DNA of 64,000 nt from the NCBI GenBank assembly GCA_964510865.1, contig CAZEDI010000001.1, positions 2,297 through 66,296 on the forward strand, given 5' to 3'. Positions 6,279 through 27,143 of the stretch are shown piece by piece. This DNA is from an uncultured Halobacteriales archaeon (GTDB taxonomy: Archaea > Halobacteriota > Halobacteria > Halobacteriales > Hikarchaeaceae). Position numbers and translations under genes: made by a program. The number at the start of each line of letters is the position of its first letter. Within the stretch, counting starts at the first letter, position 1. The notes under the pieces were generated by a model. That model did no database searches and was not told the DNA's origin. It was given only the letters and a program-made list of their open reading frames with translations.

Positions 6279-6647
6279 ACTCCGAATCCTCAGGCTCCGT
6301 GGTAACGCCAGAGGTCGACGCGTCGACAGACCCCCGACACTGGAGTGGTTATTCGCGTAGTGAAGGGCCCTCCCGGGATTGTCCCGCAGCTAGTGACTCC
6401 GAGAGTCATCCCCGGGACCTACATGCCCGGAGGGCCTTTATTACGACGGCCATAAGGAACGCAGACATGACGATAGCAACATCATACATCCTTAAAACGG
6501 ATAATTGGTGAAGTGTCGTTGTGTACTGACTATCCTGGAACAGGTATCGGTTGATGTCTTCTGCCAATTTTATCCGCTATCGAGGCCGTGTTGTTCTCTT
6601 ACCGGGGGGATAGGAAAGTGGCTGCCCGGATCAAATTCGAGGAACGA

Positions 6648-8021
6648 ATGAACCGTCAACGGGCACTTCGGCTACTCTTTTCGCTCGTACTGGCGGGAGC
6701 ACTCGTCCTACTAGGGCATAGTGCGCTTGCTGCACCGGGAGAGACTCGGTTTGGCCATGAGCAGGGAATAGTTGCCCCGCCGACGGAGAACATAACCGTC
6801 ATAACGACCGACTCCAACTCCTGGCTCGGTCGTGCTGACGGAGGGACCCGCGCAAACGCCGAGATCGTTGCACTTGCCCCTGATGGCACTGTTCTATATT
6901 ACAATGATTCCCACACACGATATTGGGACGTGGATCCTGTCGATGGGTCGCCAATGACAGTCGAGTATGTTTACGCAGACCACGTGTATGCGTCTGACTG
7001 TGGCGATGATGTTTGTACAGAGAACGGGATCGAGCGTCTTAATCTGTCGACAGGGGAGGTGACCTCCGTCTTTTCCCGTGTTACGCCCGGGAAGCATTCG
7101 ACACGATGGCATGACGTCGATAGACTATCGGAGACCCGACTGCTCGTCGCGGATATCGCACAGGACCGGGTATTCGAGGTCGATCAGGAGACGGGTATCG
7201 TGACGTGGGCCTGGAGTGCCCAGAGTGCATTCTCCGTACGGAATTCCGGTGGACCGTACCCATCGGATTGGACACACATGAATGACGTCGAGCACCTCGA
7301 GGACGGAATCGTGATGGCGAGCGTCAGAAACCACGATCAGGTTGTGTTCATCGATCCTGAACACGGGCTTTTGGAGAATTGGACTCTCGGCGCAGACGAG
7401 CAGTATGAGACACTGTACGAGCAGCACAACCCAGACTATATCCCCCGTGAACAAGGCGGCCCTGCGGTTCTCGTGAGCGATTCAGAAAACAACCGGGTCG
7501 TCGAATACCAGCGTGAGGGTGGTGAGTGGACTCGATCGTGGGCATGGGGGAGTGGCAGGCTATCCTGGCCGCGGGACGCGGACAGGCTTCCCAACGGACA
7601 TACATTGATCACAGATTCGAACGGGGACCGCGTTCTCGAGGTCGCAACGAACGGAACTGTCGTCTGGAGTGTCGATATCGCTTTTCCATACGAAGCAGAA
7701 CGCCTCGAGACGGGGGACGAGAGCACAAACGGTCCGTCAGCGTCGAAAGCTGATTTGCGTTCTCGTGGCAGAACAACTGTCGGCATCACAGTGAAGGAGG
7801 ACCCGTCCCGTGTCTCGCTCTTCGGGAAGCTGGAGTCACAGTTGACCGGACGGATCCAGAATGCATTCAGGTATATCCTGCCCGCTTGGGTCGGGCTCCC
7901 CGAACTCCTGGCGGGATTCGCTGCTGTCGTGACCGGGATCATATGGATTGTTACCGAATGGAAGTGGTCCACCTGGTCCGCAACGTTCCAGTGGCCGATT
8001 ACACTCACCCGAAACAAGTAA
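6648..8021 (+). CDS. Arylsulfotransferase (ASST)-family beta-propeller protein, membrane-anchored
   Basis: DWTHMNDV, EQHNPD and WPRDADRLPNGHTLITD motifs; N-terminal signal and C-terminal TM. ATG at 6648 preferred over TTG at 6588. Confidence 0.85.
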   Translation: MNRQRALRLLFSLVLAGALVLLGHSALAAPGETRFGHEQGIVAPPTENITVITTDSNSWLGRADGGTRANAEIVALAPDGTVLYYNDSHTRYWDVDPVDGSPMTVEYVYADHVYASDCGDDVCTENGIERLNLSTGEVTSVFSRVTPGKHSTRWHDVDRLSETRLLVADIAQDRVFEVDQETGIVTWAWSAQSAFSVRNSGGPYPSDWTHMNDVEHLEDGIVMASVRNHDQVVFIDPEHGLLENWTLGADEQYETLYEQHNPDYIPREQGGPAVLVSDSENNRVVEYQREGGEWTRSWAWGSGRLSWPRDADRLPNGHTLITDSNGDRVLEVATNGTVVWSVDIAFPYEAERLETGDESTNGPSASKADLRSRGRTTVGITVKEDPSRVSLFGKLESQLTGRIQNAFRYILPAWVGLPELLAGFAAVVTGIIWIVTEWKWSTWSATFQWPITLTRNK

Positions 8022-17054: not shown

Positions 17055-18644
17055 TTAGTGTCCGGCGTCGTGGGGGTTCAGCTCCGTCCCGTAGCGTTCC
17101 GCGTGGTCGGTATAGTCAATGAACCGCGGTGCGTCGGGGTCGAAGGGCCGTTTCAGCGCGTCGAACGCCTTCTTCTTGTCCCAGCTTTGCAACCCCCCGA
17201 TCGCACTCCGATCTTCGAGGTCGTGGTAGTCGAGATCGTCCTTCGTTTGCTCCCAGGCCTCTAACCCTTTCTCGGTTCGGATGATCACGGAGGAGTATTC
17301 GTCGCTCGAGCCGACGGAGCCGACTGTGAGATCTGCACAGTACCCGGTGAAGTCCGCACACTCATCACAGCCTTTGAGCGCAGCGACGTGGAAGTTCTCG
17401 ATGTCCTCATCGAGAATCAGCTCGAGGTCATGATTGAAGACCTTCATCTTGCCGTCGATAACGTCGAGTTTTCCGATGTCCTCTGGTGAGATGTCGCGCT
17501 TCTCCTCGAGCTGCTCGCCCATCAGCTTCTCGTAGTTGAAGTTCTTGGTACACATCAGCGCGATCGTATACTCGATCGACCGCACCCCGTCCTCGTGACT
17601 CGCGTAGTCCCACTCGAAATCCTGTAACGCGCGGATGCCTTCGATCTCGCAGGGCGTACCCACGAGGGCCAGGGACGCCTCCTCGAGTGGCACGTCGAGT
17701 TTGTGCTCCCACTGGCCGAGGTCGAGGTTGCCGAGCGCCATCGTCTGATTATAGAACGATCCAGCGTTCTCGATGAGTTCCGCTGGCGTGGTGGCGAGGA
17801 ACGACTCTGCCTTCCAGGATTCCTCGTCGTTCTCCGTGGCGATAACGGCGCCATCGATCTCGCCCGCCTCGAGTAGATGGATCAATACAGACGTGACGAG
17901 CCCACCGTCTTGTGCGTTCTCCCGCCAGTCATCAGTGACTCTGGCAGAGAACTCAGTGATCGGGTCGCCAGCACCGGAGACATTGTCGTCGCCGCCGGTG
18001 ATTTTCCACTGGCGCTCATAGCGGAGCCCGCCCCGAGGGCAGAAGTCCCAACAGAGCGAGCATCCCGTACACATCTTGACGAGTTTCGGGAGGTCGTCGT
18101 CGCCGATACCGATCGAATCCGAGGGGCAGGCGGCGACACAGGTGCCACATTGAATACACCGATCGTCCTCGATGACGGCCTCGTCGAGCTCCATAAACCA
18201 CGTCTTGTCGTCGGGCGTCTCGATGTCGTTCATCGCCTGTCGAATCTCGTATGACGGCGTGTCCAGCTCGAGCTCGTCCCCACCCGGCTTCTGTACCCGT
18301 TTATCCGCTGGCGTCTCGTAGACGTCTTGGCTCTTGCCCTCGGCCGGTTTCGTGAACTCTAGGTCGGTCAGCTCACCGTCGGGAGTGACATTCGTGGGCG
18401 CCGTCCCGCCGTCAGTGGCAGCCCTGGCGGATTTCGAGTCGCGATCCGGCGTCCCCCCGCTGCCATCACCGGTGTCGTACGCGTACTGCTGGTCGACAGG
18501 TCCCACCTGGTCGCCAGGAATGGTCCCTGATTCGGTCGCGGGGCGGTCGATTCCGACGCCGTTTGCCTTCGGAACGCTCTCTCCACCGTCCTCCGGAACA
18601 TCGGGAATGCCTGGCTGTCTGGCGTCCTCGGATTCGTCAGTCAC
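17055..18644 (-). CDS. F420H2-dehydrogenase FpoF/FrhB-like protein with 2x[4Fe-4S] ferredoxin domain
   Basis: CIQCGTCVAACP and CTGCSLCWDFCP, QDGGLVTS, VGTPCE, IALMCTKNF, CDECADF. GTG start at 18644 overlaps the reductase stop. Confidence 0.88.
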   Translation of the reverse strand: MTDESEDARQPGIPDVPEDGGESVPKANGVGIDRPATESGTIPGDQVGPVDQQYAYDTGDGSGGTPDRDSKSARAATDGGTAPTNVTPDGELTDLEFTKPAEGKSQDVYETPADKRVQKPGGDELELDTPSYEIRQAMNDIETPDDKTWFMELDEAVIEDDRCIQCGTCVAACPSDSIGIGDDDLPKLVKMCTGCSLCWDFCPRGGLRYERQWKITGGDDNVSGAGDPITEFSARVTDDWRENAQDGGLVTSVLIHLLEAGEIDGAVIATENDEESWKAESFLATTPAELIENAGSFYNQTMALGNLDLGQWEHKLDVPLEEASLALVGTPCEIEGIRALQDFEWDYASHEDGVRSIEYTIALMCTKNFNYEKLMGEQLEEKRDISPEDIGKLDVIDGKMKVFNHDLELILDEDIENFHVAALKGCDECADFTGYCADLTVGSVGSSDEYSSVIIRTEKGLEAWEQTKDDLDYHDLEDRSAIGGLQSWDKKKAFDALKRPFDPDAPRFIDYTDHAERYGTELNPHDAGH

Positions 18645-20343
18645 CGTGAGCCACCCCCGTCGAGACTGGCGCGTCCGCCTGTTGCATGACTGCCCGGAGA
18701 CGGTCGTTCCCGACCCGACGGCACCACTGGTAGAAGCGTTCTTCCTCTTCGCGCTCGTCCGTATAGACGGCGAACAGCTCTTCGAGGGCAGGTATGACCG
18801 CGTTTGCAGGGACCGCTGTTTCGACCCAGTCGAGGAACTCGTTATCGGCACCCAGCGCGCCCCCGAGACCGAAGTCCATCCCCTCGACGATGTTGTCACC
18901 TTCTTCGTTCGTGGTATTCTCCGGATCCTCGATTTTGACGGTCTCTCCCCGGAACCCGATATCGGCGATCTGGGGTTGTGCACACGATGCCGAACACCCC
19001 GACATGTGCATCCGGACAACTTCGAGATCGTCGGGCGTGTCGATCTCGCGATCGAGGGTTTTCGCCCAGCGACGGACACGCTTTTTGGTCTCAATGATGC
19101 CGTAGTTGCAGAATTCCGAGCCGGTGCAGCCTACGGCACCCCGTGAGAACGGCCCCGGGTCGACCCGATACTTCCGGGCAAAGGGCTCGTCGAGCAGATC
19201 TTCCATCTCGGAGGCGGGAACGTGTGAGATCACGAAATTCTGGTCCGTTGCCAACCGGAGCGTCGCGTCGTCGGTGCCGTATGTTTTTGCAGCGCGCGCG
19301 GCGTTTGCGAACTCGGTGCCGCTCATGCGCCCCGCAATCACGTTGAACCCGGCGTATTGGAGGTTCCCCTGTTTCTGGTTGTGGACACCGACATGATCGC
19401 CTCGGTAGCCTTCGGTCAGGTCCTCGCCCCGCTCACGCAGGTCGACCTCGCAACGATCGCGAATCGCTTCTTCGAACGTTTCCGGGCCCATCTGCTGGAC
19501 GAGGTACCGCATCCGGCAGACGCCCCGATTGTTTCGGTCGCCAAGTTCCTTGAACACCTGTGCGACGGCCCGACAGAATTCGACGGCATCTTCGGGCCGG
19601 ACGAACACGTCGAGCTCTGAGGCCATTCGAGGGCCATCGGAGAGGCCTCCCCCGACTTTGGCGTGAAAGCCGTAGTAGCCTTCCCCGCCAATCGTCTTCT
19701 TCGCCGGTGTCAGTCCCACGTCATTGATCTGGGACTGAGCGCAATCGTGGCGACAGCCCGTGATCGTCATTTTGAACTTCCGTGGGAGGTTCGCGTATTC
19801 GCGATTCTCCGTGAAGAAGTCCGAGACAGCGTCGACGACTGGCTGCGCATTGAAGCATTCGTGATTCGAGAGCCCGGCTGCTGGACACCCAAGCACGTTC
19901 CTGGCGGAGTCGCCACATCCTTGGATCGTCGTCAGGCCGACCTCGTCGTATTTCGCCCAGATATCTGGCACATCTTCGACTTCGATCCAGTGCATCTGGA
20001 TGTCCTGGCGTGTCGTAATGTCGAGGAAGGCATCCCCCCAGATCTCGTTTTGTTCCTCGCCACCATATGCCTCGGGAGCCGTGGCGTACTCGTCGGCCAC
20101 TTCGCCGATGACCTCCGCCTGCTCGGGCGTGAGTCGGCCCCCAGGCACCTTCGTCCGGAGCATAAAGTACCCTCGCTGGACACCGTGGGAGTAGAGTCCT
20201 GCCCACTTGAGACGTTCCCACTCACCATCCCCCGCACGCTCTTCGATTTCGTCGAAGGAGAGCCCCCCTTCCGCGTACTCCTTGACGTCCTCGATGACGT
20301 CGAGTGGGTGCTTCTCTTGTTTCCAGCGCTCGACTGTATTCAT
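18637..20343 (-). CDS. Siroheme/[4Fe-4S] assimilatory sulfite/nitrite reductase (Sir/NirA family)
   Basis: TTRQDIQ, NLPRKFK..TGC, siroheme/FeS ligands CTGSEFC and SGCSASC. Confidence 0.93.
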   Translation of the reverse strand: MNTVERWKQEKHPLDVIEDVKEYAEGGLSFDEIEERAGDGEWERLKWAGLYSHGVQRGYFMLRTKVPGGRLTPEQAEVIGEVADEYATAPEAYGGEEQNEIWGDAFLDITTRQDIQMHWIEVEDVPDIWAKYDEVGLTTIQGCGDSARNVLGCPAAGLSNHECFNAQPVVDAVSDFFTENREYANLPRKFKMTITGCRHDCAQSQINDVGLTPAKKTIGGEGYYGFHAKVGGGLSDGPRMASELDVFVRPEDAVEFCRAVAQVFKELGDRNNRGVCRMRYLVQQMGPETFEEAIRDRCEVDLRERGEDLTEGYRGDHVGVHNQKQGNLQYAGFNVIAGRMSGTEFANAARAAKTYGTDDATLRLATDQNFVISHVPASEMEDLLDEPFARKYRVDPGPFSRGAVGCTGSEFCNYGIIETKKRVRRWAKTLDREIDTPDDLEVVRMHMSGCSASCAQPQIADIGFRGETVKIEDPENTTNEEGDNIVEGMDFGLGGALGADNEFLDWVETAVPANAVIPALEELFAVYTDEREEEERFYQWCRRVGNDRLRAVMQQADAPVSTGVAHGD

Positions 20344-20857: not shown

Positions 20858-21706
20858 ATGACTGCTACTCATGGAAAGGTGTTCCTCGTCGGGGCGGGCC
20901 CCGGCGATCCAGATCTCCTTACTGTCAAGGCTCGGCGAGTATTGGACCGGGCGGACGTTCTTCTCCACGACTCACTGACTAGGGATGCCGTGATCGAGTC
21001 TGTCCCTGCGACAACGGAGGTGATCGACGTCGGAAAGAAGCCGGGTCCGGACGGGAAGCGGACCACGCAAGCAGAGATCAACCATCTCATGGTCGATCGT
21101 GCGTGTGCTGGCGATACCGTCGTCCGGCTGAAAGGTGGAGACCCGACTGTCTTTGGCCGTGGAGGCGAAGAAGCCGAGCATCTTGCGGACCGCGAAATCC
21201 CCTTCGAGATTGTTCCCGGTGTCTCAAGCGTGCTCTCGACGGGCCTGACTGGCATCCCTCTCACCCATCGCGAGCACGCCTCGTCCCTGACTGTCATTAC
21301 GGGACACGAGGATCCAGCGAAGGACGAGAGTTCCCTCGACTGGGATGCGCTAGCCCGCACGATCGCGTCTGGGGGCACGCTCGTCGTCTTGATGGGAGTA
21401 CGCCGCCTCCCGGGTTATACCAGAGCCTTGTGTGAGCGCGGTATTTCCGAGGAGACACCCGTGGCAATGATCCAGCGTGCGAGTTGGACAGACGAACGAA
21501 CCGTCACCGGGACGCTCGAGACGATCGTCGAAACGCGGGACCAGGCAGGCATCGAACCCCCTGCGATCACGGTGATCGGGGACGTCGTCACGGTCCGCGA
21601 GTCAGTCGCCGAGTGGCTCCAGCGCTCTGACGCCCGTGGCGTCACGTTCGAGTCCGATGCCGTGCCCTTCTCCGGGCTGGCAAACGGGACCGGAGATGGT
21701 GACTAA
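20858..21706 (+). CDS. cobA: Uroporphyrinogen-III C-methyltransferase (SirA/CysG-A)
   Basis: LVGAGPGDPDLLT, RLKGGDP.VFGRGGEE, PGVSS, IPLTHR. Confidence 0.96.
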   Translation: MTATHGKVFLVGAGPGDPDLLTVKARRVLDRADVLLHDSLTRDAVIESVPATTEVIDVGKKPGPDGKRTTQAEINHLMVDRACAGDTVVRLKGGDPTVFGRGGEEAEHLADREIPFEIVPGVSSVLSTGLTGIPLTHREHASSLTVITGHEDPAKDESSLDWDALARTIASGGTLVVLMGVRRLPGYTRALCERGISEETPVAMIQRASWTDERTVTGTLETIVETRDQAGIEPPAITVIGDVVTVRESVAEWLQRSDARGVTFESDAVPFSGLANGTGDGD

Positions 21707-24085: not shown

Positions 24086-25174
24086 TCACGCCCCGTCACT
24101 TGGTACGTCCGACTCATCGTCGAGAGCATTCTTCTCGACCTCCCTGTCCATGAATCGCTTGGCCCGTAAGTAGCGTACCCGGTATCTGTTTGCCGGGTCA
24201 TCGAAATCTGCTTCTCGAATGTCGTCGATCCGTCCGTCAGCGACGGCCTCGACAATCGCGTCAAGTTGTTCTTTCTCGCTCGGTGTCAACTCGAACTCGT
24301 ACGTCGTCGGCTCCTCACCCTCGAGCCTCGTCCAGGTGCGAGCCCCGGAGATGACGAGAGAGCACGGTTCCCGACAGGGGAACTGCCCATCACCGCCGTC
24401 GACATCGAGGTCGGTTTCGTCGTCGTATTCCCACTCTCGGCGTCGCAGGCACTGTGAATCTACACAGCACGCCTCCGCCACCCAGTTTACGTGCTCGTGA
24501 CCTTCTCCTCTGTCCCACGTTTGTACGACACCGTAGATTCCTGTTTGACGATCCACCGTCTCGCGCCAGTGGGCCACGTCGAGGTCTCCATTGTGTTCGA
24601 GGTGCCAGTTCTCGATCGTCGCTGGGTAAAAAAAGTCCACAGCGTCTACCAGCTCCACACCGGTGAGGTCGGGGAACGTCCACCCGGTTATGAGTGAGGG
24701 GGCTGTCTTCAATGGGCGATATCGGTCATCCGTGTCGAACTTCGTGATCTCCCGGGCGTCTAAGGGGTCGTCGTACCGATCGAGACTCCGGAGGTCAGTA
24801 CCAAGATCGTCCTCGTGACGGAGATCGTACCGACGATCACCGTCTTTCATCGTTACAGTGATCGCTAGTTGTCCCCACGTGCGGGTGATGCCCTCTCGGA
24901 GTGCGTCATACCGCTGCGGAACGCCGGACGTCTCCGCGTGTTCAACCCACCGAAGGAACGCTCGCCCAGCCTCGCCGGCCTCGAGGACATGCTCGAAGTA
25001 GTACCAATTCGAAACGTACTCGTCGTATTCCTGAGCGAGATCCTGCACGCCCGACTCGTTCAGCCCCTCTCTGGAAATCTCGGGAGTTTCGAAGAGGAAG
25101 CCGTCCTCTCGGTCTTCGATACGAAGCCCGTCGAAGTCAACGCCGTCAGTGAGTGGAACGTCGTCGGGAGTCAT
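24086..25174 (-). CDS. DR2241-family protein (CbiX-associated, Cys-rich C-terminus)
   Basis: WGQL.IT, YRPLKTAP.L..GW, FYPAT, CCVDSQCL...CREPC; ATGA overlap with cbiX. Confidence 0.8.
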   Translation of the reverse strand: MTPDDVPLTDGVDFDGLRIEDREDGFLFETPEISREGLNESGVQDLAQEYDEYVSNWYYFEHVLEAGEAGRAFLRWVEHAETSGVPQRYDALREGITRTWGQLAITVTMKDGDRRYDLRHEDDLGTDLRSLDRYDDPLDAREITKFDTDDRYRPLKTAPSLITGWTFPDLTGVELVDAVDFFYPATIENWHLEHNGDLDVAHWRETVDRQTGIYGVVQTWDRGEGHEHVNWVAEACCVDSQCLRRREWEYDDETDLDVDGGDGQFPCREPCSLVISGARTWTRLEGEEPTTYEFELTPSEKEQLDAIVEAVADGRIDDIREADFDDPANRYRVRYLRAKRFMDREVEKNALDDESDVPSDGA

Positions 25175-26058
25175 CGGTCCCCTACCTGCTTGGGTTCATT
25201 CTTTCCCTCTTGGGGTAACGTAGCGTCAACCGCGTCGGGATCGATCGGGGCACCGGCATCGGCAGCACGCTCAGCAATGACCCGCGCGAGCAGCGGTTCC
25301 GTCCCCACTGCACCAGCATACCATACCTTGTGACTATCAACCGTTGCAGGGACATCCCACCCGTCTCGGTAATCCGCCGTCAGACCGACATCTTCGGGGA
25401 TATCTTCCTGCGTGTGGTACCCGTCGGCGAGAAACAGTGGCACGAGGACGATGTCCTCGCTCTCGAAGTGATCGGTGAGGTCGTCGACCTCGGGATCCTC
25501 GTCCATGAACAACGCTCGAACGTCTGCGAACCGATTTCGCTCCCGTATCCGATCGGCATGGTACGTGACGGCCTTCGCCGAGTTCTCGTTGCGTTTGGTG
25601 CCGTGGCCAACGACTGCGAGACCGACCCCGCGTCCCACGGTCTCGTCCCCGGTCACAGACTCGGCTCGTCGAACGATGACATCACTCATTGCGTCGTGGG
25701 TTCCGATGGGGCCACAATAGTGCACTGTCTGTCCCGTATCACCGGCACGGAGCGTGGCGTGAGACGCGTCCGTGCCATCGGAATCCCACGTCGTCGGTGT
25801 CCACCCGCGGAGGCGGAGTTCGCGGGGGATTACCTGTTCGGTGAAGTAACCCTCGCTCATGAACACCGGGACGACAAAGACCTCGTCGCTCGTGACGGTC
25901 CGGAGGACCTCTCGTGGCGAAGGCTCCTCCTTCCAGAACGCCTCACGGACGTCGTCGAACGCGCCGGTCGCGCGGATGCGATCAGCGTGGTCGAATACTG
26001 GCTTATCGGAGTTAGGGTTCAGGTGGGACCCGTGTCCGACGACGACCAGGGAAGCCAT
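25171..26058 (-). CDS. cbiX: CbiX/SirB-type sirohydrochlorin chelatase (two CbiX domains)
   Basis: Twice VVGHGS/T, FWKEEP, VPVFMSEGYFT, VPLFLADGYHT. True start is MASLVVVGHG at 26058. Confidence 0.88.
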   Translation of the reverse strand: MASLVVVGHGSHLNPNSDKPVFDHADRIRATGAFDDVREAFWKEEPSPREVLRTVTSDEVFVVPVFMSEGYFTEQVIPRELRLRGWTPTTWDSDGTDASHATLRAGDTGQTVHYCGPIGTHDAMSDVIVRRAESVTGDETVGRGVGLAVVGHGTKRNENSAKAVTYHADRIRERNRFADVRALFMDEDPEVDDLTDHFESEDIVLVPLFLADGYHTQEDIPEDVGLTADYRDGWDVPATVDSHKVWYAGAVGTEPLLARVIAERAADAGAPIDPDAVDATLPQEGKNEPKQVGDR

Positions 26059-26504
26059 TTGCCTCCGTTTGGACAAGCGGCGGGTTAGGCCTTTCCGATG
26101 CTGTCGCACATAGTCGGTGCGCGTTGGGTCTATATGTGGATAGCCCGTCGAACCGGTATGACTCACTACACAGAACCCAGGCCCAACGGATTCGACGTCC
26201 TGGAGGTTCGACACGCCTGTCCACGAATCTGTGTCCACCGTACCCCGCGCGCCACGGCTCCGGGACTCGTTGTTTCTCTCCGTGGTCCCCGACCGGGTTG
26301 GGAAGTTCACACAGGGAACCGAGCAGACGACGCTGGTGTCTCCCGACCGACAGGTGACACCGCAACAGATCGCGGTCTCGATACGGATGTCATCGAACAG
26401 GTCACCCATATCTCACAGCGACGCTACGGTATCGCGGAACCGTCCATCAATCGGGAACGATTCGTGTGGAAGGGCACACACAACGCAACTCGGACCCGAG
26501 GCGA

Positions 26505-27143
26505 ATGATTCCACTGTTTCATGACTTCGATGGCGAGCGGGTTCTCGTATTCGGTGGCGGCTCTGTCGGTGCCCGGAAGGCCCGTCGCTTCGACCGGGAG
26601 GCCGAAGTCCGCGTTGTCGCCCCGGATTTCGTTGAGGAGGATTTCGGTGATGCGGCTCTCATCCGGGCCGAACCTGAACCCGTTGACGTCCCTCGATGGC
26701 TAGATGAGCACGCTCCAGCACTCGTCGTCGCAGCGACCGATGACCCCGCAGTCAATGCGGCCATCGAACGGGCTGCCCGTGACCGGGGTATCCTCGTGAA
26801 TCGTGCTGACCGTGCGGGAAGTCGGGAGGCGGGAAGCGTCGTCGTCCCAGCGATCGCCCGTGACGATCCGGTCGTCGTGGCGATTGCCACTGGGGGAAAT
26901 GCGCCAGTCCTGAGCAGTTACCTCCGAGAACAGGTGGACACCCTCATCGATGGGTCCGGCCGGATGGCCGAGCTCGTAGCCGATATCCGAACCGACCTCG
27001 ACAACCGCGCAGTTCCTATCCGACACCGACGCCAGGCCCTCCGTGAGATCGTCGAGTCATCCGAGGTCCGTATGGCCCTCAGCGATGGTGACGAAAACGG
27101 TGCTCGGGAAGCCGCCGAGGCAATCATTACTCGCTTCGAATAG
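26505..27143 (+). CDS. sirC: Precorrin-2 dehydrogenase (SirC/Met8p/CysG-N)
   Basis: MIPLFHDF...VLVFGGGSVGARKA, VVAATDD, LVNRAD, AIATGG.AP. Confidence 0.92.
   Translation: MIPLFHDFDGERVLVFGGGSVGARKARRFDREAEVRVVAPDFVEEDFGDAALIRAEPEPVDVPRWLDEHAPALVVAATDDPAVNAAIERAARDRGILVNRADRAGSREAGSVVVPAIARDDPVVVAIATGGNAPVLSSYLREQVDTLIDGSGRMAELVADIRTDLDNRAVPIRHRRQALREIVESSEVRMALSDGDENGAREAAEAIITRFE

Follow-up and report, generated by a model that had tools for sequence, protein, structure and literature searches.

In a 64,000-nt stretch of DNA from an uncultured Halobacteriales archaeon of the Hikarchaeaceae (GenBank assembly GCA_964510865.1, contig CAZEDI010000001.1, positions 2,297 to 66,296; hereafter the window), we characterized a pair of overlapping genes that probably encodes a two-subunit F420H2-dependent, assimilatory-type sulfite reductase. 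The pair almost certainly belongs to the group of two-subunit halobacterial enzymes that Susanti and Mukhopadhyay 2012 (PMC3448663) describe as 'aFsr', and its genes are therefore called aFsr-alpha and aFsr-beta here. A preliminary description of the window had proposed an F420H2-driven assimilatory sulfite reductase, and this is still the best explanation of the pair, with both the use of F420 and the sulfite substrate being predictions.

Gene pair and its distribution in Halobacteria

Both open reading frames lie on the minus strand, exactly where the preliminary description had placed them. aFsr-alpha (18637..20343, ATG start, 568 residues) is a siroheme-[4Fe-4S] reductase of the NirA/Sir family according to its Pfam matches and orthologues, and aFsr-beta (17055..18644, GTG start, 529 residues) belongs, according to Pfam and NCBIfam, to the flavo-iron-sulfur proteins of the FrhB family and carries a 2x[4Fe-4S] domain at its N-terminus. 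The reductase stop codon had been described as overlapping the GTG start of its partner, and the junction GTGACTGA (18637..18644, minus strand) confirmed this: the beta GTG (18644-18642) opens 8 nt before the end of the alpha TGA (18639-18637), giving an overlap of 8 nt. A start/stop overlap of this kind would favour equimolar synthesis of alpha and beta. The window has a G+C content of about 60% and acidic proteins, and close relatives are without exception haloarchaeal. No RNA sequencing run was listed for the stretch, and the runs that contain it are soil-metagenome DNA from two studies.

Orthologues of the two subunits were sought in 301 evenly sampled Halobacteria genomes. Orthologues of alpha (72-83% identity) were found in 82 of the 301 genomes, and orthologues of beta (at least 73% identity; one of them split, in genome G161) were found in the identical 82. 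In all pairs compared (about 30, with coordinates inspected by eye), alpha and beta were adjacent and shared a contig and a strand, alpha preceding beta. Cultivated carriers were also identified, for example in Haloarcula and Halosimplex. Among named genomes, the pair occurs in Halosimplex, Haloarcula, Halorientalis, Natronomonas, Natrialba, Haladaptatus, Halorussus, Halostella, Halovenus, Halarchaeum, Halocatena and Halovivax, among others, and the window pair is 70-87% identical to the pairs of many named haloarchaea. Of 76 loci from these named genomes, 72 have the reductase immediately upstream of beta in the same orientation, the other four being cut contigs or a second copy. The beta start codon overlaps the 3' end of alpha in 64 of 67 complete pairs from named haloarchaea, by 8 nt at 42 loci and by 11 nt at 22 loci (the start lying at the GTG position of the window or one codon earlier); this overlapping codon is ATG at 55 loci and GTG at nine. 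Because the start codon is kept at the overlap in these 64 pairs, the 150-residue N-terminal extension of beta is coded and is no artefact of an open frame. These data indicate that the coupling of alpha and beta is more than chance.

Clustering of the open reading frames at 19 loci revealed no neighbouring family conserved across families beyond the pair itself; apparent extra conserved neighbours in this clustering were alternate-frame shadow open reading frames and were rejected. Beta orthologues (70-74% identical) without a reductase upstream were seen at G020:C1:96897-98021 and in Halobacteriales archaeon YIM A00010 Contig00004 (L107), as orphan or second copies.

The reductase subunit

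The reductase had been described as being of the Sir/NirA type and not of the Dsr type, and the domain searches agreed with this. Alpha matched Pfam NIR_SIR (184 bits, in two stretches) and NIR_SIR_ferr (100 bits) and has the full four-domain architecture of the NirA/assimilatory sulfite reductase (aSir) type, while it scored just 37 and 32 bits against the dsrA and dsrB models. The ligands of its siroheme-coupled [4Fe-4S] cluster, CTGSEFC at residues 406-412 and GCSASC at residues 449-454 (18982..19128, minus strand), are conserved in all aligned reductase groups and follow the CX5C...CX3C pattern, which has been named as the canonical aSir motif (PMC10229431).

The active site of alpha contains the motif R188-K189-F190-K191 (19771..19782, minus strand), a K-x-K of the sulfite-reductase type as judged from alignment to PDB entries and from the orthologues. 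In this alignment, RKFK at residues 188-191 corresponds to RKWN in the nitrite reductases of spinach (2AKJ) and tobacco (3B0G), and 3VLX has RKWK there. The entries 3VLX-3VM1 differ from the wild-type tobacco enzyme 3B0G by RKWK at the aligned motif and reportedly represent its N226K variant, engineered to imitate a sulfite reductase. K215 and K217 are substrate ligands in Escherichia coli SiRHP, and the counterpart positions in spinach nitrite reductase are K224 and N226. All 11 alpha orthologues examined have RK[FY]K. The K-x-K argument, drawn from the PDB alignments, supports sulfite specificity of alpha but does not prove it.

The FrhB-like subunit

The partner of the reductase had been said to combine 2x[4Fe-4S] with FrhB-family motifs, and both were recovered. 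Pfam placed a 4Fe-4S dicluster at beta residues 156-205, FrhB_FdhB_N at residues 232-304 (78 bits) and FrhB_FdhB_C at residues 324-473 (117 bits), the FrhB domains scoring above their cut-offs; the top NCBIfam models were FrhB, FpoF and F420H2 dehydrogenase subunit F, all scoring below theirs. The ferredoxin-type 2x[4Fe-4S] domain (18009..18179, minus strand; Pfam Fer4 dicluster families) holds two CxxCxxCxxxCP motifs, CIQCGTCVAACP at residues 163-174 and CTGCSLCWDFCP at residues 192-203, and the eight ferredoxin-type cysteines are invariant in our alignment of beta (A1). The FrhB_FdhB_N and FrhB_FdhB_C domains (17226..17951, minus strand), modelled with a predicted local distance difference test score (pLDDT) of mostly 75-95, include a predicted FAD/F420 site and a QDGG motif. 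C332, C365, C426 and C429 of beta are invariant in 50 sequences, and we take them to be the ligands of the FrhB-domain [4Fe-4S] cluster.

Upstream of these domains, beta has an extension of variable length, the first ferredoxin cysteine lying at residues 96-270 (median 164) among relatives. Residues 1-78 (18411..18644, minus strand) form an acidic, variable linker rich in Gly, Pro, Ser and Thr (17 Asp and Glu versus 6 Lys and Arg; pLDDT 29-39), in which PGIP at residues 11-14 (window 18603-18614; consensus [LM]PG[VI]P) is conserved. Residues 79-155 (18180..18410, minus strand) form a conserved segment with no Pfam model, many of its columns being at least 90% conserved across 65 orthologues. 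Rhodanese-linked paralogues of beta, which are described below, have neither this segment nor the PGIP motif, and their alignments begin at residues 111-140. The segment at residues 79-155 and [LM]PG[VI]P are candidates for contact with the reductase subunit. The AlphaFold model of beta (mean pLDDT 62) is confident in the FrhB core only and is uninformative for residues 79-155 and the ferredoxin domain. Inside the acidic linker, 31 of the 65 orthologues carry CGCGxxCGC and most others have three to four cysteines in other spacings (CCEDGRCTC, CGDDCGC), with no linker cysteine in the window protein and seven other orthologues; this cysteine motif may be an optional extra metal site.

The partner had further been called FpoF/FrhB-like. 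It proved to be Fsr-N/FpoF-like, and its nearest solved relatives are all F420 enzymes. The best by sequence were 8RIU_B (148 bits), 9TN7 (135 bits), Fsr of 7NP8 (135 bits) and 7NPA (128 bits), 8RJA_E and FrhB, with beta aligning to Fsr residues 8-294. A Foldseek search with the AlphaFold model returned the same relatives at 25-29% identity, with the ferredoxin-dependent HCAR (5DQR) behind at 16%, and the fold of beta matched FrhB with template modelling (TM) scores of 0.75-0.79 normalised to the target. F420 enzymes occupy the first eleven places among the structural matches of beta and the first nine among its sequence matches. By homology, F420 use is the most likely reading of beta.

In the mechanism that we infer, alpha and beta would form a complex with F420H2 as its donor and sulfite as its physiological substrate. 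Fno would reduce F420 with NADPH, and beta would take a hydride from F420H2 onto FAD. From FAD, single electrons would pass to the FrhB-domain [4Fe-4S] cluster and on to the two N-terminal ferredoxin-type clusters, which would reduce the [4Fe-4S]-siroheme centre of alpha. Alpha would then turn sulfite into sulfide, and the sulfide would feed cysteine and homocysteine synthesis.

Substrate, electron donor and source of sulfite

Several points weigh against a two-subunit F420H2-dependent sulfite reductase, and they concern the standing of aFsr, its substrate, its electron donor and its supply of sulfite. Heryakusuma et al. 2022 (PMC9295563) still treat aFsr-beta as part of a 'putative' enzyme, and we found no biochemical or genetic test of aFsr in the literature. 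As for the substrate, alpha falls below the NCBIfam cut-offs for both nitrite and sulfite reductase: it scored 387 bits against its top model, ferredoxin-nitrite reductase NF007125 (cut-off 594 bits), and 117 bits against the ferredoxin-dependent sulfite reductase TIGR02042 (cut-off 731.5 bits). It is also far closer to plant nitrite reductases, its best solved relatives (2AKJ, 277 bits), than to maize sulfite reductase (85 bits). Next after the plant nitrite reductases in the PDB search was Mycobacterium tuberculosis NirA (216 bits), which is described as a sulfite reductase in a title cited in PMC11237513. In addition, siroheme sulfite reductases commonly reduce nitrite too (PMC10229431).

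The pair might therefore be an F420H2-dependent nitrite reductase for nitrogen assimilation or nitrite detoxification, in the manner of FsrII of anaerobic methanotrophic archaea (ANME), a role that we consider very unlikely. The K-x-K of alpha is of the sulfite type, whereas the nitrite reductases in the PDB alignment have K-x-N, and the top nitrite reductase score lies below its cut-off. A TrpD2/CnaT-like gene neighbours the pair in the window, but its position beside the pair is not conserved. Moreover, the sole other NIR_SIR protein of the window genome, on contig C75, has RKFN, a nitrite-type K-x-N. It sits in a nitrate-assimilation cluster (L061:1934-10828) together with a NasA-like molybdopterin oxidoreductase, a major facilitator superfamily (MFS) transporter, MoaA and MoeA, so that the nitrite job in this genome appears to be taken. 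Alpha is the only sulfite-type candidate found in the window genome. A cofE fragment lies at the end of the C75 contig, about 1.6 kb upstream of the K-x-N NirA and on the opposite strand.

The preliminary description had made its proposal depend on F420 biosynthesis in the same organism, and the window genome encodes cofD (358 bits), cofG (425 bits) and a cofE that is split over two contig ends, as well as Fno/npdG (236 bits). A weaker second match beside cofG is a candidate cofH. Co-occurrence with cof genes had been suggested as a check; the genes are present here, but cofE occurs in all 301 Halobacteria genomes, and co-occurrence with F420 biosynthesis is therefore uninformative and carries no weight. 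Two points tell against F420 as the donor. The FrhB family, including FrhB_FdhB_C, also scores in the Synechococcus and Bacteroides controls, which are not known to make F420, and HCAR has the same fold; the Haloferax volcanii control has no FrhB-family genes. Reported F420 levels in haloarchaea are low, with a single F420-dependent reaction on record (2021 review, PMC8305020). Beta could accordingly do without F420, accept electrons from another source such as ferredoxin or NAD(P)H, as the chlorophyll-pathway FrhB homologues do, and simply relay them to the reductase. We regard this as unlikely, since the best structural and sequence matches of beta are F420 enzymes and clearly ahead of HCAR in identity, since aFsr-beta groups with FpoF/FqoF and FGltS(I)-alpha in the published phylogeny (PMC3448663), and since the window genome keeps both the F420 pathway genes that were sought and Fno.

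The supply of sulfite was less clear. Sat-type ATP sulfurylase and a clear CysH were found neither in the window genome, which is 84% complete, nor in five complete pair-bearing genomes in which alpha of the pair is the sole NIR_SIR protein. No route to sulfite was evident in them; the only members of the PAPS_reduct family were proteins of about 330 residues of unclear role, and the matches to PAPS_reduct and APS kinase were weak or of unclear role. Sat-family sulfurylase was also missing from the Haloferax volcanii control, so haloarchaea may activate sulfate otherwise, and the lack of this family need not imply that they cannot activate it.

Most genomes of the class contain a stand-alone reductase of 590 residues with an RKWK motif. 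A top-band match to this usual K-x-K enzyme is missing from about 40 of the 82 carriers of the pair, an approximate count as the NirA of the window genome was the only protein used to calibrate the band, and 13 of the 82 have no further NIR_SIR protein; alpha would be the only sulfite-type enzyme in these genomes. This distribution is consistent with the pair having taken the place of the ferredoxin-dependent sulfite reductase. The genes around the stand-alone reductase, which include electron-transfer flavoprotein (ETF), ETF-QO, a peptidase and EamA transporters, were uninformative.

The F420H2:sulfite chemistry might also serve to remove or salvage sulfite from organosulfonates, thiosulfate or sulfated polymers instead of assimilating sulfate, an alternative to which we assign a low probability. 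The missing Sat-type sulfurylase and CysH point in this direction, and roughly half of the carriers have retained a stand-alone K-x-K reductase next to the pair in their gene complement, which may leave the pair free for a second role in them. Rhodanese domains, which act on thiosulfate or persulfide sulfur, are fused to a paralogous pair, and methanogen Fsr is primarily a detoxifier (PMC10229431). On the other hand, some 40 carriers have no stand-alone enzyme, one non-halophilic relative has a 3'-phosphoadenosine-5'-phosphosulfate (PAPS) reductase directly upstream of the pair, and the Haloferax control weakens the argument from missing sulfurylase. Assimilatory sulfite reduction with F420H2 remains our preferred reading.

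Relation to known enzymes

The window pair agrees with published aFsr in architecture and in class of organism: an aSir/NirA-type gene stands beside a homologue of Fsr-N, that is, FrhB with two N-terminal [4Fe-4S] clusters. In alpha type, beta type and gene linkage the pair has everything that defines aFsr at the sequence level, and it differs in nothing essential. The examples given in 2012 were from Halogeometricum, Halorhabdus, Halalkalicoccus and Haloterrigena (PMC3448663). As the idea of aFsr has been in print since then, the window adds no new concept. Additions made here are the start/stop overlap, the long extension of beta, the support from the K-x-K motif, the counts across genomes and the rhodanese-linked pair, none of which was found in the accessible text of the aFsr papers. 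Comparative support for aFsr now comes from the strict coupling, the sulfite-type motif and the lack of the usual enzyme in about half of the carriers.

The preliminary description had also regarded the pair as a split analogue of Fsr, which holds in that two open reading frames replace one and a NirA-type reductase replaces the Dsr-like one. In group I Fsr (Methanocaldococcus jannaschii and Methanothermococcus thermolithotrophicus; 7NP8, 7NPA), the F420H2-oxidase half, a ferredoxin domain plus the FrhB fold, is homologous to beta, and the two systems would share the logic of F420H2 to FAD, an Fe-S relay and siroheme. However, group I Fsr is a single polypeptide with a minimal Dsr-like reductase, whereas the window encodes two polypeptides of which the reductase is of the NirA/aSir type. 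Judged by these protein sequences, the pair is an analogue of Fsr and not a member.

The ferredoxin-dependent NirA/SirA enzymes (2AKJ, 3B0G, 1ZJ8) share family, length and siroheme-cluster cysteines with alpha. They are reduced by free ferredoxin and lack a dedicated partner gene of the FrhB type, unlike the window reductase, which has such a partner; the plant nitrite reductases also differ in having K-x-N where alpha has K-x-K. M. tuberculosis NirA resembles alpha in being nitrite-reductase-like overall, and it is a sulfite reductase, the activity predicted for alpha. For beta, the best matches in sequence and fold are the F420-reducing subunits of CO dehydrogenase (8RIU_B) and formylmethanofuran dehydrogenase (8RJA_E) from Ca. 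Ethanoperedens (PMC11493965) and FpoF/FqoF. Like beta, these are free-standing modules of a ferredoxin domain and FrhB; they couple an Fe-S enzyme to F420, the role predicted for beta. They differ from beta in their partner enzymes and in having no long acidic N-terminal extension, and in the ethanotroph the electron flow is directed towards F420 reduction. E. coli CysJ/CysI shares the two-subunit design of flavoprotein input and siroheme hemoprotein, but CysJ, a diflavin NADPH reductase, has no relationship to FrhB, and CysI is distant from alpha (52 bits to 1AOP).

The genes for F420 biosynthesis are kept by all haloarchaea, but the role of F420 in them has been called enigmatic (PMC8305020). 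Few concrete uses of the cofactor have been proposed for these organisms, and aFsr is a candidate for one. If the proposed activity is correct, aFsr would be a second, independently assembled case of siroheme sulfite reduction driven by F420H2.

Paralogous and non-halophilic relatives

A second, paralogous pair was present in about 27 of the 301 Halobacteria genomes and missing from the window genome. Its reductase, of about 800 residues, has two N-terminal rhodanese domains followed by NIR_SIR with a K-x-K motif and is 44-54% identical to alpha; the FrhB-like protein encoded tightly downstream (410-420 residues, without the long extension) is 41-50% identical to beta. By domain content, this rhodanese-fused pair was located at loci L052-L058 (for example L054:8769-12391 and L056:7950-11616) and at G033:C2:93164-95958. 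A possible function is that of an F420-linked enzyme whose substrate is sulfur derived from thiosulfate or persulfide. Fusions of NirA and rhodanese in Halobacteria were noted in 2024, with no mention of an FrhB-like partner in the accessible text (PMC11237513).

The pair also exists outside haloarchaea, to judge from homologous proteins of non-halophiles. These relatives keep its gene order, and the upstream PAPS reductase mentioned above belongs to one of them. In an unrooted tree, the alpha orthologues grouped with the non-halophilic FrhB-linked forms (support 96/90), apart from the clade of stand-alone and NirA enzymes and from the rhodanese-fused clade, the tree having long branches and poorly trimmed paralogue rows. 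Four singleton proteins of non-halophiles (P0123-P0126, 948-1127 residues) have NIR_SIR, Fer4 and FrhB in one frame, and P0126 also has an N-terminal PAPS reductase domain. We rejected these as natural alpha-beta fusions that could serve as Rosetta-stone evidence: each is a singleton, the linkers are Arg-rich and look like junk, and merging of separate gene calls is the probable explanation, so that they were used for gene order only.

Tentatively, and with considerable doubt, the FrhB-coupled NirA-type reductases could be seen as a wider F420-linked family of sulfur-oxyanion reductases that comprises at least two haloarchaeal systems. One would be aFsr with its acidic tether, which mostly bears a motif of three to four cysteines (a possible metal site or docking element), and the other the rhodanese-fused pair, which may reduce thiosulfate- or persulfide-derived sulfur. 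Were such a family real, haloarchaeal F420 would gain a defined physiological role in sulfur metabolism.

Genes surrounding the pair

Divergent from the pair lies a gene for uroporphyrinogen-III C-methyltransferase (SUMT; 20858..21706, plus strand; Pfam TP_methylase, 173 bits), the enzyme of the first siroheme step, a context that is not conserved across families. Farther along are a CbiX-type chelatase (25171..26409, minus strand) and an NAD_binding_7 protein resembling precorrin-2 dehydrogenase (26466..27143, plus strand), both assigned to a siroheme-route context from domain matches. The preliminary description had cited the siroheme genes and metX/metY as fitting sulfur assimilation. Siroheme genes are indeed nearby, but no neighbour is conserved across families and the metX-like and metY-like genes lie 30 kb from the pair, which leaves a weak argument. 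The chelatase gene is a double CbiX coupled to a DR2241/Fer4_23 protein with DUF7348 (window 24086-26409) and could belong to the siroheme or the cobalamin route. About 10 kb from the pair, a glycan-tailoring cluster includes a 477-residue protein with weak arylsulfotransferase (ASST) matches (window 6588-8021).

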